Positions 17,387 to 42,405 are shown, counted from the stretch's first letter. The stretch: 64,000 bases of DNA from Candidatus Levyibacteriota bacterium (GCA_963790825.1 CAWBPM010000002.1:231159-295158), one strand, 5' to 3'. The notes: generated by a model from the sequence alone, not told the origin. A program made the numbers and translations.

Positions 17387-17458
17387 TGAGCCTGAGAGGG
17401 ATCGAACCTCCAACCAGTTCCTTAAGAGGGAACTGCTCTACCATTGAGCTACAGGCCC
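17387..17458 (-). tRNA. tRNA-Lys (anticodon CTT)
   Basis: Manual cloverleaf: GGGCCUG acceptor, GCTCAATGGTAGAGC D-arm, anticodon loop CUCUUAA, GGTTCGATCC T-arm. Confidence 0.8.
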
Positions 17459-17522: not shown

Positions 17523-18641
17523 TTACTTTGGCTTAGAGAGGATTTCGCGGTATACTTTCTCGTATTCGTCAACCATCCGTTCGACGCTAAAGTATTTCTC
17601 AACATGTTCCCGGCAGTTTTTCCGCATTTGCCGGTATTCCTCTTCCGGCATTGAGTACATCCGCTCTACCGCCTCGCAAAGCCCCTCAATGCCAGTTTTT
17701 TTAACAATATAATCCGTTCTCTGATAGTCGGCTGATTGGTTAACCAGAAACCCGTTGATGCCGTCCTGTATTAACTCGGGCATAGAACCGCGCGCATAGG
17801 CAATCACCGGTGTTCCGCAAGCCATTGCTTCGGCTACCACCAAACCAAACGGTTCTTCCCATTGCACCGGGAATAAAAAGTACCTGGTTGAAGCCAATAA
17901 TTCATTTTTCATCTTAAAACTTAGCTCGCCTACAGTTTCCATCTTTTGACTGGTAGAAATTTTACCCATTACTTCAGCAAAGTAAGCCTCTTCCATGTCG
18001 TCTTTGTCTCCGGCTATCTTCAAAGGTTTGTTATATTTTTCAGCCACATACATAATTTCATCCAGGCCCTTACCTTTAGATATACGCCCCAGGTAAAAAA
18101 GGTAATCATCTTTTGCTGTTTCCTCGAAGGAAAAATCTTTTACCGGAATTCCATTATAAATATTGGTCAGAATTTTTATTTGTTTTGACTCAAGAATATG
18201 CTTCTGATTTAAAGACAGAGAGATTAAGTAATGTCCTTTGACTGTTTTTTTATAAATCTCATTGGCGTAATCCGACAGGGGATTATTATGAAGAGTCGTA
18301 ACAATCGGATTTTCAAATACTTCGCTGAAAAGCAAGGTTCTCCAAACCAGATGGTTTACTATAATGTCCTCCGGGCTGTTAATCAGCTGCCTGATGTGGG
18401 GAATCGCTTTTACTTTTGACAGATCCTTAACTTTTTTGTTCATATCACTGAAAGAGTCCAGATGTTTATCTATTACCGGGATCAGCCGGGCTGAAGTTTT
18501 TGAATCTCCGGAAGCAAGCAATATCACCTCGTGTCCCTTTTTTATAAGACCTTCCGTCAGGTAAGAGACAATTTTATTTACTCCTCCGCCGCCATCGATA
18601 CTGACAGGTTTTGTTAATTCCGCCAAAAATATTAATCTCAT
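17523..18641 (-). CDS. GT4-family glycosyltransferase
   Basis: EEPFGLVVAEAMACGTPVIA...NGFLV motif (GT-B, E-x7-E). Confidence 0.8.
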   Translation of the reverse strand: MRLIFLAELTKPVSIDGGGGVNKIVSYLTEGLIKKGHEVILLASGDSKTSARLIPVIDKHLDSFSDMNKKVKDLSKVKAIPHIRQLINSPEDIIVNHLVWRTLLFSEVFENPIVTTLHNNPLSDYANEIYKKTVKGHYLISLSLNQKHILESKQIKILTNIYNGIPVKDFSFEETAKDDYLFYLGRISKGKGLDEIMYVAEKYNKPLKIAGDKDDMEEAYFAEVMGKISTSQKMETVGELSFKMKNELLASTRYFLFPVQWEEPFGLVVAEAMACGTPVIAYARGSMPELIQDGINGFLVNQSADYQRTDYIVKKTGIEGLCEAVERMYSMPEEEYRQMRKNCREHVEKYFSVERMVDEYEKVYREILSKPK

Positions 18642-19342
18642 AAATTACTGTTTAACCACAATTTTTCTTTTCTCTTTTGCTTTTCCAGCTGTTTCTCATA
18701 ATAAGCTATTTTTTCCTTATCTCCCGATAGTTTATATTTTTTAAGATTATCCAGGATAATTTGTTTATAAATACGTAAATGTTTTTCCTGGACTTGGACC
18801 GATTTCCTGTGATCGATATAGATTTTTTTGTCGTTAATTTGTTTAATATTTTTTAGCCCTTGTACTTTTTCGTGCACTTCATGAATATAATAGCCGTAGC
18901 GTTTAAACAGTACTGTTTTAAATAATGCTTCGACAAACCGTTCATCAGCATAATTATTCCAGATAAACGAATACCCGTCAAAGGCTTTTGATTTGCATAA
19001 CCCAGCCAAACTTTGGCTCAGAGCAGGAGAACATCTCTCGTCCGCATCAAGCATAAAAATCCAATCGTTTTTTGCTTTACTTATGGCGAAATTCCGTTGT
19101 GCGCCATAGTTGCCCTCGAGTAGCCGTTGATAAACCGGAAGATTATTTTTCTTACAAATGTCGAGGGTTTTATCTGTACTAAATCCGTCAATCACGACAA
19201 TCTCCGAAACCCCGGACTTAATAGAATCAATAGCTCCCTGAAGATTGTGTTCTTCGTTAAAAGTTAGAATACAAGCCGAGATCATATTTTTATAGATAAC
19301 CGATTTCTCTTTATTTCCCGTTCCCATTTCCATTATTCCCAT
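18638..19342 (-). CDS. GT2-family glycosyltransferase (GT-A, DxD)
   Basis: SACILTFNEE...VIDGFSTD...LDADE motifs. 4-nt overlap with the downstream GT4 gene. Confidence 0.75.
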   Translation of the reverse strand: MGIMEMGTGNKEKSVIYKNMISACILTFNEEHNLQGAIDSIKSGVSEIVVIDGFSTDKTLDICKKNNLPVYQRLLEGNYGAQRNFAISKAKNDWIFMLDADERCSPALSQSLAGLCKSKAFDGYSFIWNNYADERFVEALFKTVLFKRYGYYIHEVHEKVQGLKNIKQINDKKIYIDHRKSVQVQEKHLRIYKQIILDNLKKYKLSGDKEKIAYYEKQLEKQKRKEKLWLNSNL

Positions 19343-20615
19343 TTTTAAACGGGGTTGGTATTTGCTTTTTCTCTATCAGTATTCTGCCGGTCACGATCTC
19401 GGGATTGAGGTAATTTAACTTACGATAAAGAATGGTTCTATACCTGGTCTCTATGATTTTAGCTGAAAGATCCCAGTGAAACTTTCTTAATACCCGTTTT
19501 CTGCCTGATTCACCCATTTCCAGAGCCAGTTTTTTATTTTGAATAAGACGAACGACATATTTTGCGAAAGAGGGAAGATCATGCTGGTTATTTACCAGGT
19601 AACCATCGACACGGTTACGTACGACAAAGGGAATTCCCCCGATATTTGTCGCCACCACGGGAAGTTTATTGTATAAACCCTCAGCCAGAGTAATTCCGAA
19701 GGCCTCATAGGAAGTCGGAGCTAAAAGTACATTCGCGTTTTTCAGAAAAGTTGTTTTTTCTATGTTATTTAAAAAACCGGCAATAGTTATGTTATTTGCA
19801 ATGCCTATTTTCTTTGCATGATGGAACAATTTAGTAAATGTTTCCTCATTATAATATCCTGCTAGCAGGAGATGGGTATTACTGTCAAGTTTATGGACTA
19901 ATTTGAAAACATCCAGTGCAATCGTGGCTCCTTTCCTTTCGGTTGTCAGTCTGCCAAAGAAAAGAACATATTTCCTGTCTTTGGGTATTTTATATCTTTT
20001 GAGCAGTTTTTCCCATGACATGTGCTTACTTAGTGACGCGCGGTCAATTCCGTTCGGCGCTACGACTACCTTTGCTTTGGGAATTTTTCCCTCTTTAATG
20101 AGTGTCAGCCGTTCTTGTTCGGAGACTGCGAAAATACGATCGCATTCACGAAGCATCATCTTATGAACTGTAAATTGCGTGGCTTTCCAAACGCGCGATT
20201 TCCAAGCTTCCGGATATGACCACCAGGGATGAAAATGAGGAGTATAAAAAACAGGTACCCCAAGAAATTTGGCTGCGATGAGCGATTCCGTATTAACCTG
20301 GTAGTTGAAATGATGAACGTGAATGATATCGGGATTTAATTTAGCCAAATAAACCGCCAGCTTGGGAATTTGCGGATATTCATAAATTAAGCCGGTTAAA
20401 GCGTGGGGAAGTGTTACGACTCTTAAGTTTTTTATATTACGAAATCGGCGAAGAATCAGAGGAGATCCTGACTCGGTATAATCTGAAGAAACAATATAGA
20501 CCTTGTGTCCTTTTTTACACAAGTAACGACTGATTTGCAAAATATGCTCTTCAATTCCCCCTCCATCCAGGATGCGCGGCGTAACCATTGCTATTTTCAT
20601 AGTCTTAGTCGCCAA
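19311..20615 (-). CDS. GT4-family glycosyltransferase
   Basis: YEAFGITLAEGLYNKLPVVATNIGG motif. N-terminal GT-B domain. Confidence 0.8.
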   Translation of the reverse strand: MATKTMKIAMVTPRILDGGGIEEHILQISRYLCKKGHKVYIVSSDYTESGSPLILRRFRNIKNLRVVTLPHALTGLIYEYPQIPKLAVYLAKLNPDIIHVHHFNYQVNTESLIAAKFLGVPVFYTPHFHPWWSYPEAWKSRVWKATQFTVHKMMLRECDRIFAVSEQERLTLIKEGKIPKAKVVVAPNGIDRASLSKHMSWEKLLKRYKIPKDRKYVLFFGRLTTERKGATIALDVFKLVHKLDSNTHLLLAGYYNEETFTKLFHHAKKIGIANNITIAGFLNNIEKTTFLKNANVLLAPTSYEAFGITLAEGLYNKLPVVATNIGGIPFVVRNRVDGYLVNNQHDLPSFAKYVVRLIQNKKLALEMGESGRKRVLRKFHWDLSAKIIETRYRTILYRKLNYLNPEIVTGRILIEKKQIPTPFKNGNNGNGNGK

Positions 20616-20733
20616 TTCTAACTCAATTGTCTGAGTAAGTAAAGCATCTACTATTTATCAGGAAAAGTAAAGTAAGAGAAGAACTAGAGGATGATAAATT
20701 ATTATGTGTTTAACGGCTATATAACCGTGCAAT

Positions 20734-21807
20734 TCATCCTACTCTTTCTTTCTTTCTACAGAACAATACTACCGGAATTGCCAGAGAAGTAGCAGCTACT
20801 ACGATCGCGGCATCTTCGGATACGACCGCTCCAAAATTTGCCTGGTTTATTTCACGGGACAACTCACCCACGCGATCTACGTATTGATGCTGGTTTACGG
20901 GAATTTGTTCTTCAATTCTTTTAATTTGTTTTACCAGGGACTCTGCTTGTTGACCTGTAACTTTAGTGCCTTGGGAAATTTGATCCACAATTCCCATCAG
21001 ATCATCGGCGGACTTCTCATGATTTAAAGAATCTGAACCGGGAAAATCTGACACTGCTGCCTCGATATCCATGACAGCAGAGGTACCATCGTGGCTACTG
21101 GTAAGAGCACTTTGTGCATTATCCAAATTTTCAAAAACATTCTCCGCCAGTTGGGCTGTCATGGGACTGGGTAAGGAAGCTCGCTGATTTGCCAGATTTA
21201 CTGCAGTTTCGTGTGCAAGCATTGTGCCGCCGGTAAGGCTTAGTGCCAAACCGCTTGCAAGCACCACTTTTCCGGGAACACTATGGAGAAGTACATTCGC
21301 AGTTCGTTCCGGTAATGATAGCGTGTCACTCCATGCCTCTCTCCGGCTAAGAGCCCAACTTTTTGCTTTTTCGCAGGCAGCTCGTGTCAGCGATTCTTTA
21401 TTTCTCAACATTATTTCACTGGAAAGTAGGGCTGCCTCAATATTACGCCGATCTACAAAAAGCTTTAATCGCGGTTGTAATGATTCCTGATTATAAAAAT
21501 ATTTAACAACATCTCCTGCCAATCGTGTTTCCCTGGATGTCGGCATTTCAGTGGGTATTTGCAGATATTTCTCTGCTTCCGGCAATCTTTCCCAATCTTC
21601 AGGCTTTGTATTTAGGTAGTTAAGCAAATTTGCGGCATGATATAGTTCTCCAACCTCCGCACCGCTAACACCTTTAAGATGCTTATCCGTTTCAAATAAG
21701 TGAAACAAAACACTGACTGTACTGGTTAACTCAACACTTGTCGGAGGGCGATCTGAAAAACGTTGTTCTTTGTGTCTTCGATTTTTAAAAATTTCACTTT
21801 TACTCAT
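20734..21807 (-). CDS. Hypothetical tail-anchored protein (C-terminal TM), paralog of 21907..22989
   Basis: Shared blocks with its neighbour (FPGS...DLM-I--QIS-G-K-TGQQA-SL--QI---E-QI). C-terminal hydrophobic helix. Locally elevated GC. Confidence 0.5.
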   Translation of the reverse strand: MSKSEIFKNRRHKEQRFSDRPPTSVELTSTVSVLFHLFETDKHLKGVSGAEVGELYHAANLLNYLNTKPEDWERLPEAEKYLQIPTEMPTSRETRLAGDVVKYFYNQESLQPRLKLFVDRRNIEAALLSSEIMLRNKESLTRAACEKAKSWALSRREAWSDTLSLPERTANVLLHSVPGKVVLASGLALSLTGGTMLAHETAVNLANQRASLPSPMTAQLAENVFENLDNAQSALTSSHDGTSAVMDIEAAVSDFPGSDSLNHEKSADDLMGIVDQISQGTKVTGQQAESLVKQIKRIEEQIPVNQHQYVDRVGELSREINQANFGAVVSEDAAIVVAATSLAIPVVLFCRKKERVG

Positions 21808-21906
21808 AATAAGCTTAGAGTATAGCTGAACAGCTACAAAAAGTAAATGAACCTCCTGGTCTTACCGTCGCCTTTCCGTCCTCACTTCAAACCAGAACTG
21901 TAAAAT

Positions 21907-22989
21907 TTATCCGTTTTTTCTTCTTTTTGATTGCGAAAAATCCTTAAGAAAGTCTACGCCTAAAGTTCCTGCCAGAAGCGAAATTAAAAGTAGCCCAAAT
22001 GCCCCCGAATTCGCGTTTAGAATCTGGACATCCAGGTCATATGCCTGACGATAATATGCACTTTGACTGTCTTTGATTTGCTTCTCAACATTTGCAATTT
22101 GGCCCGTAAGAGAAGCTGCTTGTTGACCGGTTATTTTCCCATGCGAAGAAATTTGCCGCTCAATTTGCATAAGATCATTAGTAACCGGGGATGAACCGGG
22201 AAAATTTACAGCTGCGTCCTGAGTAGCAATGCTGGCAAGATCAGCACTGGGATTAAAATTTACAGCCCCACAAGTTTGTGGCTTAAGTGCGCAAACTGCA
22301 CTGTCCAGATCCGCTAGGGCATAGTCTTGGGCAGTTATTGCCGGGGTTATTTGGCTAGCTACTTGATTAATAAGCGTTTGCATATTGTTGCATTCTGCGA
22401 TAGAGCCGTAAAAACTGGCACCTGCTACAATTATGGAGGCAACGGCTCGTTTGGGAGTTATAGACAGAAGCGTCCCCGCCGTTTGTTTGGGAAAATCTAA
22501 GGCCTGTTGTATTCGTTGTCTACGGACTATAGCCGAATTCGCTTTTCTCACCTCTTCCGCTCTTGCCATCTCCTCCTTGACTGACAATTCCTGCTTTCGT
22601 GAGCATAATGCCGCTTCTATATTTTCCCGATCAAAAAGCGGAAAGGCATTAATTTCCGCGTCAGTCGATAAAACATAGCCCAAAACTTTTTCACTGGTTT
22701 TAACCGCTTCAAGCGTCGGATTAATATCAGGAACTTGTATATGCTGTAAATCCGCAGGCAGTCTATGCCATTCCTCGTTTGTTACCGGATATACCCGGTC
22801 AAAAGTTCTGTTCGCCCCGCCATATAATCCTTCCCAGTCCGAAGTTGTAAGGCGTTTATCCGTAGTAAGTAAATTATAATAAGTTCCGACAGCAGTTTCT
22901 AAATCATCCATAGTAGGAAACTTAGAAGAGAGAGAAGGGAAATTTTCACCCGGCTTTAGATTAGGACCGGCGCTTGGTATCTCGACCAT
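21907..22989 (-). CDS. Hypothetical tail-anchored protein, paralog of 20734..21807
   Basis: Same conserved blocks and C-terminal TM. Elevated GC. Confidence 0.5.
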   Translation of the reverse strand: MVEIPSAGPNLKPGENFPSLSSKFPTMDDLETAVGTYYNLLTTDKRLTTSDWEGLYGGANRTFDRVYPVTNEEWHRLPADLQHIQVPDINPTLEAVKTSEKVLGYVLSTDAEINAFPLFDRENIEAALCSRKQELSVKEEMARAEEVRKANSAIVRRQRIQQALDFPKQTAGTLLSITPKRAVASIIVAGASFYGSIAECNNMQTLINQVASQITPAITAQDYALADLDSAVCALKPQTCGAVNFNPSADLASIATQDAAVNFPGSSPVTNDLMQIERQISSHGKITGQQAASLTGQIANVEKQIKDSQSAYYRQAYDLDVQILNANSGAFGLLLISLLAGTLGVDFLKDFSQSKRRKNG

Positions 22990-23051
22990 ATTAAGCCTAA
23001 AGTATACTCGTATTTAAGCTAAAAGTAAACAAACTTTACATCACCAGACAA

Positions 23052-24026
23052 TCATTTGTTGTAAATACCTTTGGCATAATCCGGCAGTCCGCTAGCTATT
23101 TCGCGAAAAATGGCATCTGTAAATGATTTCGGCGTTACTTGTGTGGTTTCCTGAATACGAGCATAGAGATCTTCTATTTTTAACGGTAAGCCAAATTTTA
23201 CCTGTATTGGATTTACCTCCCGGGGATTCAGAGCGGAACGTATGCCTCTCAGCTTAAAAAAATTAGTATCCGGACTCCACACCCGGTACGATCCGTGTGT
23301 ACTGATCGGTATAAGCAAAACTTTATTATTCCTTTTTTTTGCAATTTCCATGATTAATTTAGCCGGTAATAGGCGGTCTTCCTCATGATTTTTATTGCTT
23401 TGTTTTACTGCACCCATACCGCAGATATTATTCCATACCGGATGTTTGGGATCTTTGTTTCTGCCTGCCTGAACCGAACCTTCGGGAAAAAAGAACAAAC
23501 CATAGCCCTCACCTGCGGCATGAAGTAATTGTCGCGCTATACCCAGATTATTTCCTTTCATCTGAAAATCATCATGGTCGCAGCTTCTCACCACGGGAAG
23601 TGTATATAAATTATGCCGTTCAAAATCGGGAGTCAGTAATTTATAAAATACCTCCAGGCCTTTTCCTTGGTCTCCGCGCTTGAGTGATGCTGCGATTGGT
23701 AAATAAAACCCTTTTAAGCCACCCCTGAGTGCCAGTATTTCCGCTTCTACAGCAGCTTCAGGACCGTTCAAATGTGCTTCATGATTCGATATACCAACAG
23801 GAACATATCCTGCTTTGACTGCGGGTTTATATACACCGTCAAATCCTTCTGCAAAGTGAAAGTCTGCTGTTTTTTCCACAAACGAATCCACCCAATCCAA
23901 GTCTGCTAACCTGTTTCCCATTTTTTCCAGACGCTTGTCGGTAAGAATACTGGTTGCTGCCCGCCATTTCCAGTCTACGATTTTTTTGGGCGGATATCTC
24001 TGTTGCGTTTCAATACATGTTGCCAT
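23052..24026 (-). CDS. Putative divergent acyltransferase (LPLAT/PlsC-like)
   Basis: GISNHEAHLNG (NH-x4 motif) and FFFPEGSVQAGR (FPEG-like motif). Weak assignment. Confidence 0.35.
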   Translation of the reverse strand: MATCIETQQRYPPKKIVDWKWRAATSILTDKRLEKMGNRLADLDWVDSFVEKTADFHFAEGFDGVYKPAVKAGYVPVGISNHEAHLNGPEAAVEAEILALRGGLKGFYLPIAASLKRGDQGKGLEVFYKLLTPDFERHNLYTLPVVRSCDHDDFQMKGNNLGIARQLLHAAGEGYGLFFFPEGSVQAGRNKDPKHPVWNNICGMGAVKQSNKNHEEDRLLPAKLIMEIAKKRNNKVLLIPISTHGSYRVWSPDTNFFKLRGIRSALNPREVNPIQVKFGLPLKIEDLYARIQETTQVTPKSFTDAIFREIASGLPDYAKGIYNK

Positions 24027-24105
24027 ACAGTCGAGATTATACTAGATCTTAACCTTCGTTTCCAGACACGGATTATATTTTAACAAGCAAGTTGAAAAGT
24101 GTGTA

Positions 24106-24140: not shown

Positions 24141-25997
24141 ATGCCCAAGTTTCATCTCGTTCAGCGAAAGATTAAACTTACTTCCGGTAAAAAATTGAGG
24201 ATAACCAGTATCCTGACACTGCTCTTTTTGCTGGCAATAATTCCCCTGACTGTTTCAATACTTGAAAAACAGCAGGAAATTCGTCAACACGCTGCCACTT
24301 CAACGGGTTGGTGGTTACGGGATATGGGAATGACGGCTGTTACTCATGATACGGTTTGTAATCAGGAAAGCCAAGCAAATATGACACGACTGGTCAGTTA
24401 TATTCCTCAGTTTCACGCTAACTTTGCTTCCGACGATGTGCCGCTCGATGGTTCTGGCAGCTATAATTGCACATTCGGACAGGGAAACGCACCGCTCCAG
24501 CCGTATCAGTATATGCTCAACTGGGCAAATACCATCCACGGGGCAGGACTGCACGTTATTTATCGGGGCAATTGGAATAATTTCGCCGGAGATTATGGAC
24601 AAGCAAAACTTTCATACAGCACCAGCCCTGCCATTTCATATGAATCCCCAGGCGGACTGTCTGCAGTATTAAATGGTACCGATACTACCAGTTATATCGG
24701 AAGAACATATCAATGGATTTTGAATCATCCGGGTATCTTTCAGGATGGCGACGTTTGGGAACCTTTCGGCGAGCCGCAAAATAACGGTATTACCAATGGT
24801 CCGGCAGGTACCTCGGCTGCGAATTGTCCTAAGAGTATTTGTCAATTTCCCTCCACTGCAGCTTTTAATCAGTGGTTAAGTGATTTCAGCCAAGCCGACC
24901 AGACAGCTTTTCGAGCAATTGGTAAAAATGTTACTTCAGGTTGGTTTGGTCTTGCCGGTGATTCATATACTTATGTCACTCCTTTGGCTATGAGCTACAG
25001 CAGCGCCTATAATATGGACCATTTTGCTCAGAGCTACAGCAACTTTACCAGTTTGATTGTGGATAGTCATAATGCGTTTCCCAACCTGCCCATGACTTTG
25101 GAGTGGGGAGATATTAATAGTGCCGACAATACGCCCCAGTTAGTTGCTAATACCACTGATCAGTATCTTGGTTGGCTGGTTCAACAATCCTATGTTAGCG
25201 GGTTTGAATACTGGTACGAATCAGGACAAGGTGCAGGAGCACAGTCTGCAGCAGTAGATTTTAATACCGGTCAAATGACTCCTGCCGGACAGATTGTAGA
25301 GAAATATTTTGCTATGGAAGAAACAAGTACTACTCCGACTCCTACAACTCTTGTGACACCGACATTTACTCCCACCCCAACTCCTAAACCAACCAGTAGT
25401 CCTACTCCATCTGTAATGCCCAGTGCAACTCCGACTCCTACTCCGCTACCGGGTACTACCACTCTCTCCTTCCCGGGTATTCTTCTGCACGGAATAGGCT
25501 CAGCCGGAGACTCGGTTGCCCCGGGAACTTCGGGGAATACAAGTCCTCTGACTCCCAATCGTACACTAAGCGTACAGGTAGTAAACGCAAGTAACGTTCT
25601 TGTTACTACTCTTTCAGGAACAATTACCTATTCTCCCTCCAGCGGGGGATTCTCAGGAAGTGTCAGTCTGGGAAGTACTGTTCCAACCGGTTCCTACTTA
25701 GTAAAGGTAAAGACTGATAAGTACCTGGTAAAACAACTCCCCGGTATTATTACACTTACTCAAGGACAAACTACTACCATTCCCCCTGTTTCTCTTATCG
25801 TAGGAGACATCAATAACGACAATACACTTAATATCCTGGACTACAATATACTCCTTGGTTGCTACTCAGACTTCCTTCCTCCTACCAGTTGTCCCGGAAC
25901 TAACGGAAAAGAGAGTGACCTTAACGATGACGGATCAGTCAATGCCTCTGACTACAACCTCTTCCTGAGAGAACTGTCTGTACAAAGTGGAGAGTAG
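24141..25997 (+). CDS. Secreted putative clan GH-A-like glycoside hydrolase with PT-linker, beta-sandwich and C-terminal dockerin
   Basis: Signal anchor. WEPFGEPQ (NEP-like) motif. C-terminal module identical to the next two genes, with dockerin repeats DINNDNTLNILD / DLNDDGSVNASD. Confidence 0.55.
   Translation: MPKFHLVQRKIKLTSGKKLRITSILTLLFLLAIIPLTVSILEKQQEIRQHAATSTGWWLRDMGMTAVTHDTVCNQESQANMTRLVSYIPQFHANFASDDVPLDGSGSYNCTFGQGNAPLQPYQYMLNWANTIHGAGLHVIYRGNWNNFAGDYGQAKLSYSTSPAISYESPGGLSAVLNGTDTTSYIGRTYQWILNHPGIFQDGDVWEPFGEPQNNGITNGPAGTSAANCPKSICQFPSTAAFNQWLSDFSQADQTAFRAIGKNVTSGWFGLAGDSYTYVTPLAMSYSSAYNMDHFAQSYSNFTSLIVDSHNAFPNLPMTLEWGDINSADNTPQLVANTTDQYLGWLVQQSYVSGFEYWYESGQGAGAQSAAVDFNTGQMTPAGQIVEKYFAMEETSTTPTPTTLVTPTFTPTPTPKPTSSPTPSVMPSATPTPTPLPGTTTLSFPGILLHGIGSAGDSVAPGTSGNTSPLTPNRTLSVQVVNASNVLVTTLSGTITYSPSSGGFSGSVSLGSTVPTGSYLVKVKTDKYLVKQLPGIITLTQGQTTTIPPVSLIVGDINNDNTLNILDYNILLGCYSDFLPPTSCPGTNGKESDLNDDGSVNASDYNLFLRELSVQSGE
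25366..25997. repeat. About 630-nt near-identical repeat, copy 1 (encodes PT-linker, beta-sandwich and dockerin)
   Basis: Direct nucleotide comparison with 27374..27995 and 29086..29715. Confidence 0.85.
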
Positions 25998-26015
25998 TAT
26001 ACTTATTATATATGT

Positions 26016-27995
26016 ATGTGTTTACATATTATCTTTAAAAAAATAAAATTGACACCAGGCAAAAATATTCGCTTAATTTCGCTTGGATCTTTGGTTCTGT
26101 TTCTAATTGTACTGCCAATTCTTATTATTAGTTTACAAACACGCCAAACCATCCATCAATACGCAAGTACAGTGCCAAATCTTCCTGATACAACCAACGG
26201 TATTCATTTCGGGCTGCCGTTTAATGCATGGGTTCCAGTCGTCAATGGCGTATTTCAGGAACAACCTGCCGAATATGTATTTGGTGCGAATAATAATGGA
26301 GTAGCAAACGTACCCGGTACAGCTCTCTGGCATGAGATATACACACCTTGGCAGCGGGAGAATGACGATCAAGGTAATAACAGAAACCTGGCTTGGTTCC
26401 AGACAAACCATCCTGACTGGATCATGTACGGACCGGATAAGAAGACTCCGGCTACTTGGGAAGGAGATAATTGCTGCGTCGTCCTCGACTACGCGAATCC
26501 TACTGTTCAATCTTGGGTTACCGCTATTCTTATCCATTGGCTCGGTCACGGTTATAATGGGATTTCGATTGACAACAGCGTGGATGACAATCAAACCAAT
26601 GCCGTGGGCCACTACACCTTGCCTGGCATCTCAGGCGGCACCTGGGTTGCTCAATATTCAGGCACTGAGCCTGGGGATACTGCCTGGGCTGCGGCAAGTG
26701 AAACAGCGCTGACCAATATCATTACTGCCGTTAAAGCGCAGTATCCGAACATTTCAGTTACTGTTAACCAGAATTATGTCTACAATTATATCAATCAGGC
26801 TGGGTTTGAGCAAAGCTTTAATGTAGCTACCGGCACATTGGATGAGGGATATTTGTGGTGGGCGACAAAGAATGACAGTACTGCATGGCTCAACACGATG
26901 ACCGAGTACAGGCATATGCAACGTGATTTGGCTAAAAGTCTTTTTTTGATCAATGCTTCATCCTACACTATGACTACGAACATGACTACTTCAAGCATGA
27001 CTGCAAGGGCCGATGTACAGTTGGCATTGGCAAATTATCTGCTCATTAAGTATAACCACACTTATTTTTGGTTCGGGATGACAGGTGCAAGTGCTTCCTC
27101 GCCAGGACAGTACGGCCAACCAATAGCTATGCAGTCTGAATATAGCGCTCCAATCGGTTCGCCAATCAATGACTTCTACGCTTCGCAAAATGTCTACATG
27201 CGTAACTATACTAACGGATTGGCAATCGTCAATCCGGACACTAGCTCACATAGCTTAACCTTTCCCAGCGGACAATACAAGGATCTATACGGTAATGCAA
27301 TTACAACCTATACAATGCAATCCCATTCCGGTCTTATTTTACTGCTTACTTCTTCTCCAACTCCAACAAATACCCCAACTCCTAAACCAACCAGTAGTCC
27401 TACTCTATCTGTAATGCCCAGTGCAACTCCGACTCCTACTCCGCTACCGGGTACTACCACTCTCTCCTTCCCGAGTATTCTTCTGCACGGAATAGGCTCA
27501 GCCGGAGACTCGGTTGCCCCGGGAACTTCGGGGAATACAAGTCCTCTGACTCCCAATCGTACACTAAGCGTACAGGTAGTAAACGCAAGTAACGTTCTTG
27601 TTACTACTCTTTCAGGAACCATTACCTATTCTCCCTCCAGCGGGGGATTCTCAGGAAGTGTCAGTCTGGGAAGTACTGTTCCAACCGGTTCCTACTTAGT
27701 AAAGGTAAAGACTGATAAGTACCTGGTAAAACAACTCCCCGGTATTATTACACTTACTCAAGGACAAACTACTACCATTCCCCCTGTTTCTCTTATCGTA
27801 GGAGACATCAATAACGACAATACACTTAATATCCTGGACTACAATATACTCCTTGGTTGCTACTCAGACTTCCTTCCTCCTACCAGTTGTCCCGGAACTA
27901 ACGGAAAAGAGAGTGACCTTAACGATGACGGATCAGTCAATGCCTCTGACTATAACCTCTTCCTGAGAGAACTGTCTGTACAGAGCGGAGGATAA
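26016..27995 (+). CDS. Secreted GH114-like (TIM-barrel GHL) glycoside hydrolase with C-terminal dockerin module
   Basis: VVLDYANPTVQSWVTAILIHWLGHGYNGISIDNSVDD resembles the GH114/GHL signature. The shared C-terminal dockerin module is present. Confidence 0.5.
   Translation: MCLHIIFKKIKLTPGKNIRLISLGSLVLFLIVLPILIISLQTRQTIHQYASTVPNLPDTTNGIHFGLPFNAWVPVVNGVFQEQPAEYVFGANNNGVANVPGTALWHEIYTPWQRENDDQGNNRNLAWFQTNHPDWIMYGPDKKTPATWEGDNCCVVLDYANPTVQSWVTAILIHWLGHGYNGISIDNSVDDNQTNAVGHYTLPGISGGTWVAQYSGTEPGDTAWAAASETALTNIITAVKAQYPNISVTVNQNYVYNYINQAGFEQSFNVATGTLDEGYLWWATKNDSTAWLNTMTEYRHMQRDLAKSLFLINASSYTMTTNMTTSSMTARADVQLALANYLLIKYNHTYFWFGMTGASASSPGQYGQPIAMQSEYSAPIGSPINDFYASQNVYMRNYTNGLAIVNPDTSSHSLTFPSGQYKDLYGNAITTYTMQSHSGLILLLTSSPTPTNTPTPKPTSSPTLSVMPSATPTPTPLPGTTTLSFPSILLHGIGSAGDSVAPGTSGNTSPLTPNRTLSVQVVNASNVLVTTLSGTITYSPSSGGFSGSVSLGSTVPTGSYLVKVKTDKYLVKQLPGIITLTQGQTTTIPPVSLIVGDINNDNTLNILDYNILLGCYSDFLPPTSCPGTNGKESDLNDDGSVNASDYNLFLRELSVQSGG
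27374..27995. repeat. Near-identical repeat, copy 2
   Basis: Nucleotide identity with copies 1 and 3. Confidence 0.85.
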
Positions 27996-28050
27996 GTAAT
28001 TAGGATAGCCTTGACACTCTTCTTAGTAATACACTACTATTTATATAATT

Positions 28051-29715
28051 ATGAAAAGTAAAAGAAAGAAGAAATACTCAATCTTTCTTAGTATAATTAT
28101 AGTTTTTTTTCTCCTCCTTGCAGCTGTCCTTGCCGTCTGGTACTCACAAAAACAACAACATGTAAATCAATATGCAGCAACAAGCGCCTCCCCTTCAGGA
28201 GAAGACATGCCGGTTGGTGATTTACCCGGCTGGCATCAGATCTTCACTGATGATTTTACAACCAACGTTACAGTGCCTAACTTCTTCAGTGTGTATGGTA
28301 ACAGGTGGCGCAGTTATGGTGATGGTGTATCCGATACTAGCGGTAATGGGCGTCGCTACGACACGCAAGTTCTCTCAGTCACTAACGGCATCCTCAATAT
28401 TTATATACATACGGCACTCGTCAATGGTACATATGTGCACATGGTTGGTTCACCAGTACAAGTTTTATCTCCATGGGATCCTAATTGTAAAACAGTTAAT
28501 GGCACTGGTTGTTGGCCAGGTCAACTTTATGGTCGCTACAGTATCCGTATGCGCGCAGACCTGTTGTCCAATTATAAGACGGCTTTTTTGCTTTGGCCTC
28601 AATCCCAGAACTGGTCATATGATGGAGAAATTGATTTCCCAGAATCACTGCATGATTTAACAGGTCCAATCAATGCGGCAGTATGGTGGGAATATGGTAA
28701 CTATGCGGATGACGATCAAAATTGGTGGACAGTTACCGGCTCAGGTTTCTACAATAATTGGCACACATATACCATTGACTGGACCCCGAACGCGATCGTC
28801 TACTACATTGATGGAGATGTGGTCGAAAACTTTTCTGGCAGCATCGCAACGTGGTCTGACGGTCGCTCTAAAATACCCAACACCCCTATGTACTGGGTTC
28901 TACAGACGGAAACCCAGCTTACTCCAATTGTCAATCCAGCTAACAATATAGCAGGCAACGTACAGGTTGATTGGGCAGCAGCATATTCATATTCTCCACC
29001 TACCACTGGGACACCTGTTACCCCGACTCCCAGTGTAAAGCCTACCCCTTCAACAAAACCTAGTGCAATACCAACCCCGACTTACACTCCCACCCCAACT
29101 CCTAAACCAACCAGTAGTCCTACTCCATCTGTAATGCCCAGTGCAACTCCGACTCCTACTCCGCTACCGGGTACTACCACTCTCTCCTTCCCGAGTATTC
29201 TTCTGCACGGAATAGGCTCAGCCGGAGACTCGGTTGCCCCGGGAACTTCGGGGAATACAAGTCCTCTGACTCCCAATCGTACACTAAGCGTACAGGTAGT
29301 AAACGCAAGTAACGTTCTTGTTACTACTCTTTCAGGAACCATTACCTATTCTCCCTCCAGCGGGGGATTCTCAGGAAGTGTCAGTCTGGGAAGTACTGTT
29401 CCAACCGGTTCCTACTTAGTAAAGGTAAAGACTGATAAGTACCTGGTAAAACAACTCCCCGGTATTATTACACTTACTCAAGGACAAACTACAACCATTC
29501 CCCCTGTTTCTCTTATCGTAGGAGACATCAATAACGACAATACACTTAATATCCTGGACTACAATATACTCCTTGGTTGCTACTCAGACTTCCTTCCTCC
29601 TACCAGTTGTCCCGGAACTAACGGAAAAGAGAGTGACCTTAACGATGACGGATCAGTCAATGCCTCTGACTACAACCTCTTCCTGAGAGAGTTATCTGTA
29701 CAAAGTGGCCAGTAA
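28051..29715 (+). CDS. Secreted GH16 beta-glucanase with PT-linker, beta-sandwich and C-terminal dockerin
   Basis: GEIDFPE catalytic motif (E-x-D-x-x-E), FLLWPQS, HTYTIDWTPNAIVYYIDG. The dockerin module is present. Confidence 0.8.
   Translation: MKSKRKKKYSIFLSIIIVFFLLLAAVLAVWYSQKQQHVNQYAATSASPSGEDMPVGDLPGWHQIFTDDFTTNVTVPNFFSVYGNRWRSYGDGVSDTSGNGRRYDTQVLSVTNGILNIYIHTALVNGTYVHMVGSPVQVLSPWDPNCKTVNGTGCWPGQLYGRYSIRMRADLLSNYKTAFLLWPQSQNWSYDGEIDFPESLHDLTGPINAAVWWEYGNYADDDQNWWTVTGSGFYNNWHTYTIDWTPNAIVYYIDGDVVENFSGSIATWSDGRSKIPNTPMYWVLQTETQLTPIVNPANNIAGNVQVDWAAAYSYSPPTTGTPVTPTPSVKPTPSTKPSAIPTPTYTPTPTPKPTSSPTPSVMPSATPTPTPLPGTTTLSFPSILLHGIGSAGDSVAPGTSGNTSPLTPNRTLSVQVVNASNVLVTTLSGTITYSPSSGGFSGSVSLGSTVPTGSYLVKVKTDKYLVKQLPGIITLTQGQTTTIPPVSLIVGDINNDNTLNILDYNILLGCYSDFLPPTSCPGTNGKESDLNDDGSVNASDYNLFLRELSVQSGQ
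29086..29715. repeat. Near-identical repeat, copy 3
   Basis: Nucleotide identity with copies 1 and 2. Confidence 0.85.
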
Positions 29716-31131: not shown

Positions 31132-33060
31132 TTATTGTCTTAGACTACCCCATTCAACAACAGTAAGTCCCTTTCTTGATGGTACTTGTGAAAAAGTAAA
31201 AGGCTGAACTACAGTTGGCTTCTGAAGTGGTTTATACTCCATCATTATCCGAATAAATGTATCGGGTCTAGGAGTAATCTCCAGCGGCACTAGTTGATTT
31301 AAAGTTTCAGTCTGATAGAAAGTTATAAAATAATAGGGGGATGAGTTAAAGGAAGACAACCATGCATGCATAAAATCACCTGCTTCCTTTATATTTAGTC
31401 CTAACTTAGGTAAAACTTGTTCAAATAATCCTTTTACCTCATTTGCCTTCACGACAAATCCATCATCTCTCTTTGGGTAAAAGGTAGAATATCCCTCCCA
31501 GAAAAGATACGGATAACTAATAGTATCGTCCAGATTTACAATATTACCGTTAGGCGATGCGGATACAATCCACCCCATATTATATTCAGGTAAAGTAGAG
31601 GTAAGATGAACTATATCCCCAAACTTAATTGAAACATTTTCAGTTTTTTGAGGGTACAGATATATGATCGGCTCACACTCTGAAGGTGGTATAAGATTTT
31701 GATTTGATAATCTGATGTATCTGCCGAGCGGATCTTTCCAGATAAGAATTGGGTACTGAGAAGAAAATGAGCTATATGTCTGGGGAGTCGGATAGTCAAT
31801 AACATATGGTTTATTTGCTGTTGTCTCATCCATATAGTTATTATAAAAATTAACAATGAGTGGATTATTGAGATCTTTCAACCCATAAATTGCATCACCT
31901 GAGTTCTTAACTGTTCCTAATTGAATCAAATCAGCAGCAGAAATTTTACTTGGATCAATTACACCTATTTCATCAAAAGTTTCTTCTGCGCAATCACCCG
32001 CAGATTTAGTAGAGTAATTTGAACTAACAACGACCCCTGTATTCCAATTTATTTTACTCGAATCAAAAAGACTGCTTCTATTTTCGGTTTTGAAAAACGG
32101 AGGAGCGTATGTATACAGTAGGTATGTCCCGTCAGGACGGAAAACAAAAAAAGCGTTATTAGTATAACATGCAGTATTATGGCAATATCCAATACCTCCG
32201 GACGAGGGAATCTCCATTGAGTTTTTTGTAACAATACCCGCATAGAAAGATCCTTGCGGACTTAAACCTGGTTTTGTGGTGTATATTTTACCCAAAATAG
32301 GATCGGTGAATACAGGCATAAGAAGAGTTGCATCAAGTGTCCCGTCCTGTTCAGAATCTCCATAGTCCAACGTCATTGCAGGATTTACCTCACTTAGGTG
32401 AGTGGGGTATTCAAGGACAGGTATTGTAGAAGCATTATCAATTATCTCTGGTATACCAGTTTTGTTAAAAAGAGCTTGTGACATCATTGATACAGGTGGA
32501 AGATACGAATCGGGTCCTCCATTAACTTTGTCTTGAGATATTCTTGGCAGAAAAACTATAGTATTGTCTAATTTAATATATCTATCTATATTGTCTTGCG
32601 AACATGCATCACTTTTACATCTTCCACCACCCACATTAGTATCTACATCTACAAGATCTCCCCCTTGATATTTTCCTCCTACTATTTTTCCAACCCTATA
32701 AAACGCATAATTACCATCCCAAAATTCTATAGTTACAGAAGCACTTACGGTTGCAATTAGTTTTCTTTGCGAAAAATTAACATTGAGAATATTCGTTGAT
32801 ATTCCAGTCGGCTTTAATCTTAATGTAGGATTATTTAGCTGATTAATGGAGTTTTGTGAGTGCTTTGTATAAAAATAATAACTAAAGAATGCAATAATGA
32901 CCGATACGAAGACAGTGAACAACAAAATAAGAATTCTTTTAGAAAGGTTTTGAGAGTTAGTTTTTTGTGATATCAATGGCTGCTCTGCATTATCTACAGA
33001 AGATTCAATAGATTGATTAGAAACTTGAGTAGGTGATTGATCAAAGTTATCTGCTACCAT
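31132..33060 (-). CDS. Large membrane-anchored extracellular protein, unknown function
   Basis: Single N-terminal TM after a polar N-terminal stretch. 640 aa, no recognised motif. Confidence 0.45.
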   Translation of the reverse strand: MVADNFDQSPTQVSNQSIESSVDNAEQPLISQKTNSQNLSKRILILLFTVFVSVIIAFFSYYFYTKHSQNSINQLNNPTLRLKPTGISTNILNVNFSQRKLIATVSASVTIEFWDGNYAFYRVGKIVGGKYQGGDLVDVDTNVGGGRCKSDACSQDNIDRYIKLDNTIVFLPRISQDKVNGGPDSYLPPVSMMSQALFNKTGIPEIIDNASTIPVLEYPTHLSEVNPAMTLDYGDSEQDGTLDATLLMPVFTDPILGKIYTTKPGLSPQGSFYAGIVTKNSMEIPSSGGIGYCHNTACYTNNAFFVFRPDGTYLLYTYAPPFFKTENRSSLFDSSKINWNTGVVVSSNYSTKSAGDCAEETFDEIGVIDPSKISAADLIQLGTVKNSGDAIYGLKDLNNPLIVNFYNNYMDETTANKPYVIDYPTPQTYSSFSSQYPILIWKDPLGRYIRLSNQNLIPPSECEPIIYLYPQKTENVSIKFGDIVHLTSTLPEYNMGWIVSASPNGNIVNLDDTISYPYLFWEGYSTFYPKRDDGFVVKANEVKGLFEQVLPKLGLNIKEAGDFMHAWLSSFNSSPYYFITFYQTETLNQLVPLEITPRPDTFIRIMMEYKPLQKPTVVQPFTFSQVPSRKGLTVVEWGSLRQ

Positions 33061-35645: not shown

Positions 35646-35719
35646 TACGCCTGGAGGGACTTGAACCCCCGACCCCTTCGTCCGAAGCGAAGTGCTCTAA
35701 TCCGCTGAGCTACAGGCGC
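35646..35719 (-). tRNA. tRNA-Arg (anticodon TCG)
   Basis: Manual cloverleaf: GCGCCUG acceptor with G1-U72 wobble, GCTCAGCGGATTAGAGC D-arm, anticodon loop CUUCGGA, GGGTTCAAGTCCC T-arm. Confidence 0.8.
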
Positions 35720-35819
35720 GAATGGAAACACCTGTTATTTTATAGTAATCAGGAGAGAAACTCAAATTGAGTAATGAATAAGTCACGATACATATTGGAA
35801 TCTTAAGGAAGAAGATTCT

Positions 35820-36848
35820 ATGCCAAGTGATTTTAAACGAGTAAGACATTTACGACCAAAATACTCACAAAAGAGCTATCATATACTGATGAAAATGCTC
35901 CAGAATTCATTAGCAGTTGAAGTATCCGATGTAGCTGCTTTTCGCCTTCACGTGATTAATCACTACTACAAGTATGGACTGCGTCCAACCCTTGCTGCAT
36001 TCAAAATAAAGAAGAGCAGCTTATACAACTGGAGAAATGCTTATGAACACAACGGAAAAAGGACAATCAGTTTAGTGCCACACGGAACTAGACCTCTCCA
36101 TGTGCGAAAGATGGAGACAGACTGGAGAATAATTGAGTTCATTAGAGAGATGAGGCATGAGCATGGGAATATTGGTAAAAGTATGCTCAAGCCCTTTGTT
36201 GATGCGTATGCCAAAGAGCTGGGTATTAAGACCTTGGCAGAAAGTACTATTGGGAAAGTACTTAAAAGACGTCACTTAACATTTGAGAAGAAAGTCTACC
36301 CACAGAAACAAAAAAACAAGTTCAAAAAGCTAAGAGTGAGAAAGTCTCCTAAGGTAGTTTCTCCTGGATTTATTGAGATGGATTCAGTAGTTGTCTATAT
36401 CAATTTTGAGAAACATTTGTTTATGTGTGTGATTGATATTTACACAAAATTTGCCTTAGTTGTATATGTACCGGATCTCTCCTCAGTAACAGCAAGAGAG
36501 GTTTTTAAGCAGTTCCAGTGCAATAATCCAACACCGATTCATACAATCCAAACAGATAATGGATCAGAGTTTCTCAAATCATTCCATGAGTATATAGTTG
36601 AACAGAAAATTAAACATCAATTTATCTATCCCAGAATGCCAAAGATTAATAGTTACATTGAGAGATTCAATCGGACAATCCAGGAGGAATTCATTTTAAG
36701 AAATGACGAGATTTACTATGACTCAGAAGCATTTGCAAAAAAGCTCACAAAGTATTTATACTGGTATAACTATAAGAGGCCACATGCTTCGCTTAAATAT
36801 ATGTCGCCTATGTCCTTTATACAAGCCAAGATTCCAATAAGTGCGTGA
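35820..36848 (+). mobile_element. IS481-family-like DDE transposase (rve integrase core) ORF; IS ends not resolved
   Basis: N-terminal HTH-like region. DDE core with QTDNGSEF and YNYKRPHASL motifs. Single about 340-aa ORF is typical of IS481. Flanking inverted repeats could not be identified by eye. Confidence 0.75.
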
Positions 36849-41379: not shown

Positions 41380-42405
41380 ATGAATAAAATATTTGTACTT
41401 GTTTTTTTATTATTCTTACTTCTGCTAATAACATTGTTATTTCTTAATAAATCTTCAACAAGGGTTGAAAAAACAGCGAGCAGAATACAAACAACCGGTA
41501 CCAATCCGCTTATGATCTCTCAAATGAGAAAGCGCTCATATCCCGGAAGTCCTATTATAAAAGAGCAGACACTGCCGCCTAACGATAACTATAATTCTTA
41601 TATCGCGTCGTATAAATCGGACGGCTTAAAAATCTACGCCCTCCTGACTGTTCCAATCGGAGTAAAACCTAAAAATGGCTGGCCGGTGATTCTTTTTAAT
41701 CACGGCTATATTCCACCGACTCAGTACCGGACAAGGGAAAGATACGTTGCCTACGTAGATGCGTTTGCGAAGAACGGTTACATTGTTTTTAAACCCGATT
41801 ACCGGGGAAACGGCAGCTCGGAGGGTAAACCCGAAGGTGCATACTATTCTCCGGCCTATACGGTTGATGATTTAAATGCCCTGAGTTCCCTAAGGCGGTA
41901 TAAAGATGTTAATCCGAATAAAATCGGTGTTTGGGGACATTCAATGGGCGGAAACATAACGCTTAGGGACCTGGTAGTAGAACCGAAATGGATACAAGCG
42001 GCTGTGATTTGGGGAGGTGTTGTCGGCTCATACAAAGATTTACTCAGTTGGCATGATCCGACCTATCATCCGTCGGGCGGGGAGGGAATTTTGCGGGTCC
42101 GAACCCATTCACAGTTGAGTAAGCAATACGGTACTCCCGATACAAATCCCGCGTTTTGGCACTCAATCGATCCGACTTATAATCTAGCCGATATTTCAGC
42201 TCCGATTCAGTTGCACCATGGAGAATCCGATATAGAGGTTCCATTAGAATTTTCTTTTTCTCTGTATGATAAACTCAAAAAAGCAGGAAAAACTGTGGAA
42301 TTTTATAGCTATCCGGGCGCAGATCACAATATCTCAGATCCGAGTTTTTCCTTGGCCATAGAGCGTTCAATCAGCTTTTTTAATAAATACTTAAAAAACA
42401 AATGA
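41380..42405 (+). CDS. Alpha/beta-hydrolase (S9 prolyl-oligopeptidase/esterase-type catalytic domain)
   Basis: GVWGHSMGG nucleophile elbow, HHGESD and GADHNI (Asp/His of the triad). Signal peptide present. Confidence 0.7.
   Translation: MNKIFVLVFLLFLLLLITLLFLNKSSTRVEKTASRIQTTGTNPLMISQMRKRSYPGSPIIKEQTLPPNDNYNSYIASYKSDGLKIYALLTVPIGVKPKNGWPVILFNHGYIPPTQYRTRERYVAYVDAFAKNGYIVFKPDYRGNGSSEGKPEGAYYSPAYTVDDLNALSSLRRYKDVNPNKIGVWGHSMGGNITLRDLVVEPKWIQAAVIWGGVVGSYKDLLSWHDPTYHPSGGEGILRVRTHSQLSKQYGTPDTNPAFWHSIDPTYNLADISAPIQLHHGESDIEVPLEFSFSLYDKLKKAGKTVEFYSYPGADHNISDPSFSLAIERSISFFNKYLKNK

Follow-up and report, generated by a model that had tools for sequence, protein, structure and literature searches.

PatA, the mycobacterial PIM acyltransferase, which belongs to the HtrB/LpxL-type branch of the glycerol-3-phosphate acyltransferase/lysophospholipid acyltransferase (GPAT/LPLAT) superfamily, departs from the canonical chemistry of the HX4D motif, as its HX4D aspartate is merely structural and a carboxylate of block 3 (E200) forms the charge relay with the histidine; PgsA1, PatA and PimA correspond to Rv2612c, Rv2611c and Rv2610c, respectively (PMC4792965). 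Bacteria of the Candidate Phyla Radiation (CPR) are reported to have an incomplete lipid synthesis and to be rich in lysolipids (PMC7242380). In this work, we analyzed a block of three genes, designated A, B and C (positions 20734-24026), in a 64,000-nucleotide (nt) stretch of DNA from a Candidatus Levyibacteriota bacterium (GCA_963790825.1 CAWBPM010000002.1:231159-295158), hereafter the window. The original prediction, made from the sequence alone, had described three co-directional genes of raised guanine-plus-cytosine (GC) content, two encoding paralogous tail-anchored proteins and one an LPLAT-like protein, and had proposed a horizontally acquired module. All three open reading frames (ORFs) were indeed recovered on the minus strand, namely A (20734-21807, 357 amino acids, aa) and B (21907-22989, 360 aa), putative all-helical orphan membrane proteins, and C (23052-24026, 324 aa), a divergent GPAT/LPLAT-superfamily acyltransferase-like protein. 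With moderate confidence, we read them as a native block of a cell-envelope region, in which C would be a peripheral LPLAT-type acyltransferase relying on His82 and Glu182, and A and B a lineage-restricted, duplicated helical pair.

The assignment of C was addressed through its family, its motifs and its predicted fold. Iterated searches gathered 16 family members displaying 21-33% identity (alignment A3), none of them annotated, among which C is the most divergent. Six of the 16 match PF01553 below threshold (best E 2.3e-4), with relatives reaching 15-18 bits against a gathering threshold of 23 bits; C itself displays no PF01553 signal. The family profile matched PlsC of Thermotoga maritima (5KYM) in three colinear pieces corresponding to motifs I, III and IV (E 0.049), and hhalign against Escherichia coli PlsC (b3018) was likewise colinear over these motifs (E 0.008). 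No transmembrane (TM) helix was found in C by hydropathy. An AlphaFold2 (AF2) model of C, built on the 16-sequence alignment, reached a predicted local distance difference test score (pLDDT) of 77 and a predicted TM-score (pTM) of 0.78, and its top four Foldseek matches all belong to the GPAT/LPLAT superfamily (prob 0.97-1.00): squash GPAT 1K30 (E 2e-4) and 1IUQ (E 1e-3), both with prob 1.00, followed at ranks 3-4 by chain T of 7ZKQ and by PatA 5F2T (E 0.026, prob 0.98). Entry 7ZKQ is a complex I assembly intermediate containing the HX4D-family transacylase tafazzin, in a publication that does not show the identity of chain T as tafazzin (PMC9668296). The PlsC/LPLAT-like character originally ascribed to this gene from its NH-x4 and FPEG motifs is thus borne out by the motifs themselves (NHEAHLN and FPEG), by the fold search, by the sub-threshold PF01553 matches and by the colinear PlsC motifs, and C, as modelled, falls within the GPAT/LPLAT fold superfamily as one of its divergent members.

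The motifs of C allow a catalytic scheme to be proposed. Motif I, NHEAHLN (23766-23786, minus strand), keeps His82 and carries Asn in place of Asp87, and its histidine aligns with that of NHqS in T. maritima and E. coli PlsC. Motif III (block 3), FFPEGSVQAGR (aa 179-189; 23460-23492, minus strand), aligns with FPEGTR of the same two enzymes, and a motif IV-like segment, VLLIPISTHG, lies at 23292-23321 (minus strand). Residues H82, E182 and G183 are invariant in the 16-member alignment and R189 is kept in at least 90% of it, the block-3 signature of the family being FPEGSVxxGR. By analogy with PatA, His82 would be the general base, and Glu182 of FPEG would supply the carboxylate in place of Asp87, as E200 does in PatA; given this precedent, an HX4N protein with an invariant FPEG glutamate may still be active. 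Most likely, C would work on the cytoplasmic side of the membrane, acylating a (lyso)phospholipid or a glycolipid.

The genomic context of the relatives fits a lipid-related role. Relatives of C occur in metagenome-assembled genomes of Candidatus Daviesbacteria (locus L003) and Candidatus Levybacteria (L005), and in a contig labelled "uncultured Gammaproteobacteria" (L004, CAZKAW010000036.1), whose gene order (S41 peptidase, trypsin-PDZ, rpsR-ssb-rpsF, C-like gene, ychF) is of CPR type. As a side observation, this order mirrors that of the Daviesbacteria contig, and L004 is probably a mis-binned CPR contig. In four independent loci the C-like gene stands between ychF and rpsF-ssb(-rpsR), namely L002 (3253-4718), L003 (5914-6798), L004 (5941-6903) and L007 (2202-3290), and in L002 it overlaps the upstream CDP-alcohol phosphatidyltransferase gene by 4 bp. 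From these contexts, the C family looks like a core lipid-metabolism gene of CPR lineages, and the subfamily has so far been found only in CPR-type contigs. It escapes Pfam and NCBIfam, and the precomputed annotation is "-" for every member. Overlooked acyltransferases of this kind, which may be under-counted in metabolic reconstructions, bear on the question of whether lipids scavenged by CPR bacteria are re-acylated. The useful result of this work is the gene C subfamily, not the orphan pair, and it is an incremental one.

Regarding A and B, the paralogy proposed for the 357- and 360-aa proteins was corroborated by BLASTP, with 32% identity over 324 aa (E=5e-35). In their codon alignment, identity was 0.405 at third positions, 0.495 at first and 0.532 at second positions, and the nonsynonymous divergence (dN) amounted to 0.745 vs a near-saturated synonymous divergence (dS) of 1.89. 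Because third positions diverge most and conserved blocks have been kept, we consider A and B to be real, selected genes; the possibility of spurious ORFs was ruled out on the same pattern and the same blocks. The codon-position pattern is, as judged from this single pairwise alignment, that of purifying selection, and the best explanation for the pair would be an old tandem duplication of a lineage-restricted, all-helical membrane protein.

Conservation between the two proteins is centred on two blocks, at about residues 118-128 and 263-305 of B. Block 1 reads LFDRENIEAAL in B (22606-22638) and LFVDRRNIEAAL in A (21427-21462), and block 2, the best-conserved and best-modelled part of B, reads FPGS...DLMQIERQISSHGKITGQQAASLTGQIANVEKQI in B (22075-22203) and FPGS...DLMGIVDQISQGTKVTGQQAESLVKQIKRIEEQI in A (20902-21045), all on the minus strand. 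The shared motifs can be written as LF(V)DRxNIEAAL, FPGS...DLMxIxxQIS...KxTGQQAxSL and QIxxxExQI. All the motif blocks listed in the original prediction are present in both proteins, and the spacing given for them fits B only: in A, 10 residues separate FPGS from DLM (5 in the pattern), and QGTK takes the place of xxGK. At the nucleotide level, a residual 40-nt repeat persists between A and B at the FPGS codons of block 2.

The duplication extends to the regions upstream of the genes. On the minus strand, A and B are each preceded by a promoter-like TTTACT-17-TATACT element (21819-21847 and 23001-23029, respectively) whose end lies 11 nt from the ATG, and C is preceded by a TGGAAA-17-TATAAT element (24036-24064) whose end lies 9 nt from the ATG. 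Element and leader were duplicated along with the gene in the case of A and B. A similar TTTACT-17-TAGAAT element is found at the start of the next glycosyltransferase gene, of family GT4 (20615-20643, minus strand). No Shine-Dalgarno sequence was found before A, B or C, only -10-like boxes 9-11 nt upstream of the ATG. These arrangements suggest that A, B and C may be transcribed independently as near-leaderless mRNAs, and that they share a promoter type with the GT4 gene.

An extensive search for relatives of A and B was carried out. An exhaustive HMMER search with an A+B profile, run with no word prefilter against 1.84 billion representative proteins (standing for about 15 billion predicted proteins), returned only A and B, and a word-indexed search of 5.8 billion clusters returned B only, as a self match. 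A pattern scan (A1) of GTDB representative genomes yielded 80 pattern matches, none of them real, and a scan of metagenome DNA from the Joint Genome Institute for the codon pattern of K.TGQQA.SL..QI yielded 0 matches. Against Pfam, nothing better than E of at least 0.04 was obtained for A and B (LemA, XhlA, Orbi_VP7 and similar). With A, B and C as queries, PADLOC profiles gave 0 matches, and PHROGs profiles gave only matches at E of at least 0.11, to families of unknown function. Two candidates were considered and discarded: AcrIF11 from NCBIfam (E 0.009, 16.9 bits vs a cutoff of 50), and the trypanosomatid ribosomal protein eS25 from PDB sequence profiles (E 0.002), a probable chance match with no Pfam corroboration. 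The latter covers positions 149-221 of the A/B profile (about aa 140-210 of B; window positions about 22360-22570), corresponds to a winged-helix region, and lies over the central hydrophobic segment described below.

Structure-based searches gave a similar picture. The AF2 model of B is all-alpha (pLDDT 59, pTM 0.36), and Foldseek against the PDB produced nothing significant (best E 0.1, TM below 0.3); the top matches of this low-confidence model were mostly generic helical structures, i.e., fusions of G-protein-coupled receptors with BRIL, HPt domains and chemoreceptor four-helix bundles. The statement that these proteins relate to no characterised family thus holds for Pfam, NCBIfam, PADLOC, PHROGs, PDB sequences and Foldseek, none of which gave a significant match, and the proposed structural and distribution searches agree with it, with no significant structural match and only the two proteins themselves among the representatives. 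On the strength of these comparisons, A and B are orphans. CPR genomes commonly contain orphan membrane proteins, and the pair illustrates the depth of the orphan gene pool: a selected, duplicated membrane protein of 360 aa with no relative among some 15 billion predicted proteins.

The membrane topology of A and B was examined by hydropathy and charge distribution. Both proteins carry a strong C-terminal hydrophobic helix (Kyte-Doolittle [KD] 19-residue mean 2.0-2.2), followed by a basic tail: in A, the putative TM helix spans aa 333-350 (KD 2.16) and precedes the tail RKKERVG (20737-20811, minus strand), and in B it spans aa 330-348 (KD 2.02) and precedes the tail KDFSQSKRRKNG (21910-22002, minus strand). 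The tail of B contains 5 K/R (net charge +4) and that of A contains 4 (net charge +3). A second hydrophobic segment is located centrally, at aa 181-198 of A (21214-21267, minus strand; KD 1.45) and aa 182-199 of B (22393-22446, minus strand; KD 1.48, pLDDT below 50), where it could be a first TM helix or a buried helix. The two segments occupy aligned positions in both proteins. Counted on either side of the central and of the C-terminal segment, K/R residues number 3|0 and 0|5 in B vs 2|1 and 1|4 in A. Neither protein has a hydrophobic N-terminus, and no signal peptide was found.

According to the positive-inside rule, basic flanks favour the cytoplasmic side of the membrane. Since K/R residues precede the central segment and follow the C-terminal helix, with few between them, the rule favours a hairpin with both termini in the cytoplasm. 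The corresponding topology, predicted from sequence features, would begin with a helical N-domain in the cytoplasm (about 180 aa), from which a marginal TM1 leads to a second helical domain, extracytoplasmic and about 130 aa long; TM2 would then return the chain to the cytoplasm, where the basic tail lies. The extracytoplasmic domain would carry the best-conserved block, FPGS...KxTGQQAxSL..QI...ExQI. Of the single-TM, tail-anchor topology originally proposed, the strong C-terminal helix stands, and the second conserved segment and the K/R pattern are suggestive of a hairpin instead. We regard the two topologies as roughly equal in probability, leaning slightly to the hairpin. As for function, our best guess, of low confidence, is that A and B are rapidly evolving scaffold or adaptor proteins of the envelope or cell surface, which might form hetero-oligomers via their amphipathic helices; a role as enzyme or mobile effector seems less likely.

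The association of A and B with C was sought elsewhere. No A/B-like ORFs were found at six C-relative loci (hmmsearch --max on six-frame ORFs, L001-L007). The metagenome contig Ga0078972_1006031 (L009) harbors a GT4-X-GT4 cluster syntenic with that of the window, with 40% identity in GT4, and this cluster is preceded by galT, ruvC and yebC, with no A, B or C. The co-occurrence of the trio in other genomes, suggested as a check, was consequently not observed at the six loci or in L009, and the adjacency of A/B and C is seen in one genome only; any functional link between them would be an inference.

Several observations weigh against the reading of a native block with an active acyltransferase and a helical membrane pair. 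With regard to C, no match was obtained in Pfam at E<=1 or in NCBIfam, the hhalign probability against E. coli PlsC is just 4.8%, and Foldseek gave modest TM-scores (0.40-0.46). If the canonical GPAT/PlsC mechanism applies, loss of the HX4D aspartate could mean reduced activity or none. Moreover, C itself lies outside the ychF/rpsF context of its family and, given this atypical context, may be a diverged extra copy. With regard to A and B, the pair is carried by one genome only, which leaves no comparative evidence, and nothing positive backs any specific function for it. The central segment is marginal as a TM helix (KD 1.45, Gly/Ser/Thr present, pLDDT below 50), and the eS25 winged-helix match warns that it may instead be buried inside a soluble domain, so that the two-TM topology may be wrong. 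Finally, the model of B is poor (pTM 0.36), so that missing fold matches count little and are weak evidence.

Among the alternatives, one that we regard as unlikely, though still to be reckoned with, holds that A and B are genuine tail-anchored proteins with a cytoplasmic helical part of 330 aa and only the C-terminal helix in the membrane. They would then serve as tethers of coiled-coil type, as remodelling factors or as proteins akin to SNAREs and syntaxins, and C might join them in taking up lipids or in membrane contact with a host cell. The strongest hydrophobic helix does lie within 30 residues of the C-terminus in proteins devoid of a signal peptide, the AF2 model has a single unbroken helix (288-359) that continues into the TM segment, and the central segment is marginal and weakly resembles a soluble winged-helix region. 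Furthermore, host cells are believed to be the source of lipids for CPR bacteria (PMC7242380). Heptad-like hydrophobic periodicity is moderate in A and B, with values of 0.42-0.45 at positions a/d vs 0.20-0.22 elsewhere. SNARE motifs, which immediately precede the TM anchor and can be recognised by profile, comprise about 53-60 residues arranged in heptads, with a polar layer at the centre. A SNARE- or syntaxin-like identity was searched for and discarded, with no such match in Pfam (E<=1), PDB sequences (E<=10) or the Foldseek top 50, and no coiled-coil family was found in Pfam, PDB sequences or Foldseek either. Against the tail anchor also stand the basic tails (4-5 K/R, net +3 to +4), which would have to cross the membrane, contrary to the positive-inside rule, as well as the second hydrophobic segment kept at the same position in both proteins; for a joint role with C, evidence of a functional link to A and B is absent.

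A rather improbable alternative is that C is a pseudo-enzyme devoid of catalysis, or else a surplus copy of its family undergoing decay, and A and B are dispensable, fast-evolving, lineage-specific genes. The HX4D aspartate is present in the 15 other members of alignment A3 as well as in the L003 and L004 homologs, and Asn at this near-invariant position occurs only in C, which is in addition the most divergent member, situated away from the usual ychF/rpsF context and devoid of the PF01553 signal shown by six relatives; the dN between A and B is likewise high. However, C is a full-length, intact ORF that keeps H82, FPEG and motif IV, and its fold is confidently predicted. The Levybacteria (L005) homolog has Gly at the HX4D aspartate position (HX4G), suggesting that the family tolerates change at this site, and PatA indicates by analogy that the aspartate may be dispensable where a block-3 carboxylate serves. 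As for A and B, their long intact ORFs, their two strongly conserved blocks and a codon pattern consistent with purifying selection argue against dispensability.

The horizontally acquired three-gene module of the original prediction, acting as a membrane-remodelling or effector-like unit, is very improbable in light of the composition of the block. The genes are adjacent and co-directional, and their total GC (0.427-0.440) is indeed about 1 standard deviation (sd) above the mean of the window genes (0.394, sd 0.039). Nevertheless, the "visibly higher GC" does not make the trio an outlier, as several other window genes equal or exceed it and the raised-GC zone spans about 20-30 kb of the window, peaking at the neighbouring dockerin genes. 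GC at third codon positions (GC3) is 0.33-0.36, matching the window mean of 0.35; the excess is confined to first positions (GC1 0.535-0.564, at the top of the range) and second positions, which are also raised. As the excess falls on positions 1 and 2 with a typical GC3, it is attributable to the amino acids encoded (Ala, Glu, Val, Asp, Gly) rather than to a foreign mutational bias, and this corrects an inference of horizontal transfer. Synonymous codon usage is unremarkable (z-scores of -0.56 for A, -0.74 for B and +0.58 for C by leave-one-out codon likelihood), as is the tetranucleotide distance over the block (z about -0.2 in 3.3-kb windows). What truly stands out in composition is the neighbouring stretch at 24.2-30.2 kb, which contains the dockerin genes and reaches a tetranucleotide z of up to 3.9.

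Other lines of evidence agree with the composition. No integrase or transposase gene flanks the block, its flanks encoding GT4/GT2 enzymes and dockerin hydrolases. A tRNA gene (17387-17458) does lie 3.3 kb downstream, beyond the glycosyltransferase cluster, and no 13-mer of it is repeated as an attachment (att)-like repeat would be. No donor can be named, A and B being without relatives in our searches, the relatives of C are core-like CPR genes never accompanied by A/B, and each of the three genes has its own promoter-like element. That L009, the only related contig found, lacks A, B and C ahead of its syntenic GT4 genes would fit a gain of the block, but at just 40% identity in GT4 this absence says little on recent gain. 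The proposed GC and codon check accordingly found the block to be typical, and with PADLOC and PHROGs empty as well, horizontal transfer was rejected on GC3, synonymous codons, tetranucleotides and the lack of both att repeats and mobility genes. We favour reading the block as native to a cell-envelope region, with no sign of foreign origin and acquisition not supported, a verdict for which the 64-kb window is the only composition reference. Its carrier is a small-genome bacterium (751-kb contig) that, judging by gene content and by where relatives of C occur, is probably a CPR/Patescibacteria organism of Microgenomates type.

Least credible, and rated as highly improbable, is the proposal that A and B founded a new membrane-protein fold in one CPR lineage and work with C; if true, they could, e.g., capture host lysolipids for re-acylation by C or tether episymbiont-host contact, and would offer a molecular handle on membrane building in lipid-auxotrophic CPR bacteria. 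A membrane-remodelling or effector-like role for A, B and C is pure speculation.

Concerning the surroundings of the block, a co-directional GT4-GT2-GT4 glycosyltransferase cluster identified by Pfam (17523-20615, minus strand) lies downstream of A, and is given here as context only, without implying a functional tie to A, B or C. On the opposite side, three adjacent genes on the plus strand (24141-29715) encode secreted glycoside-hydrolase-like proteins, with an N-domain of unknown type, a GHL15 domain and a GH16 domain, respectively. They have in common a C-terminal module consisting of a PT-rich linker, an Ig/MG2-like region and a type I dockerin, which is reflected in 300-nt repeats of 95-100% identity at 25356-25673, 27354-27671 and 29074-29391; a similar PT-linker and dockerin-like module forms the C-terminus of a Levybacteria protein (L005 8260-11106). 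Further along this envelope-rich region, a 642-aa ORF (31132-33060, minus strand), another large protein without annotation, is not matched by Pfam at E<=0.001. The rve-family integrase/transposase gene nearest to the block, some 12 kb away (35820-36848, plus strand), adjoins a tRNA gene (35646-35719, minus strand), and the two together (35646-36848) may correspond to an insertion sequence element or an integration site. Finally, a membrane- and lipid-related fusion protein joining an LPG_synthase_TM-like N-terminal region to DUF2079 (42402-44771, plus strand) may bear on envelope lipid modification.

Compared with known systems, A and B resemble bacterial tail-anchored proteins in lacking a signal peptide and in having their strong TM helix close to the C-terminus, within some 30 residues of it; unlike them, they have a second candidate TM segment and long basic tails favouring a cytoplasmic C-terminus, and they display no homology to any known tail-anchored family. 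The comparisons for C are closer. Squash GPAT (1K30/1IUQ) is its best structural match, with about 250 aligned columns and an alpha/beta core after an N-terminal helical region, and both proteins are devoid of a TM helix and possess the motif I catalytic histidine and an FPEG-type block 3. They differ in sequence (9-10% identity, TM-score 0.44-0.46), in motif I (HX4D in GPAT, HX4N in C) and in length (about 360 vs 324 aa). With bacterial PlsC, C shares the colinear arrangement of motif I (the NHxSxxD region), motif III (FPEG) and motif IV (hydrophobic-P-hydrophobic), and the role of PlsC fits the C family, one relative of which overlaps a CDP-alcohol phosphatidyltransferase gene. Unlike PlsC, C has no PF01553 match and no HX4D aspartate, and its family carries long insertions, e.g., an invariant YxPxAASLxxGxQG block, with no counterpart in the E. 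coli PlsC alignment.

PatA differs from C in sequence (12% identity, Foldseek E 0.026) and in setting, with no evidence of inositol or mannoside chemistry. The logic of their gene neighbourhoods is nonetheless similar. The genes of PgsA1 (a CDP-alcohol phosphatidyltransferase), PatA and the GT4 enzyme PimA are adjacent; on the side of C, L002 has a CDP-OH_P_transf gene ahead of its C-like gene, and in the window C is followed downstream by GT4 genes. In contrast to the PatA locus, no single C-type locus has all three partners adjacent, and A and B separate C from the GT4 genes. Taken together, PatA resembles C as a structural match, and its scheme of a histidine assisted by a block-3 carboxylate is one that would suit C.

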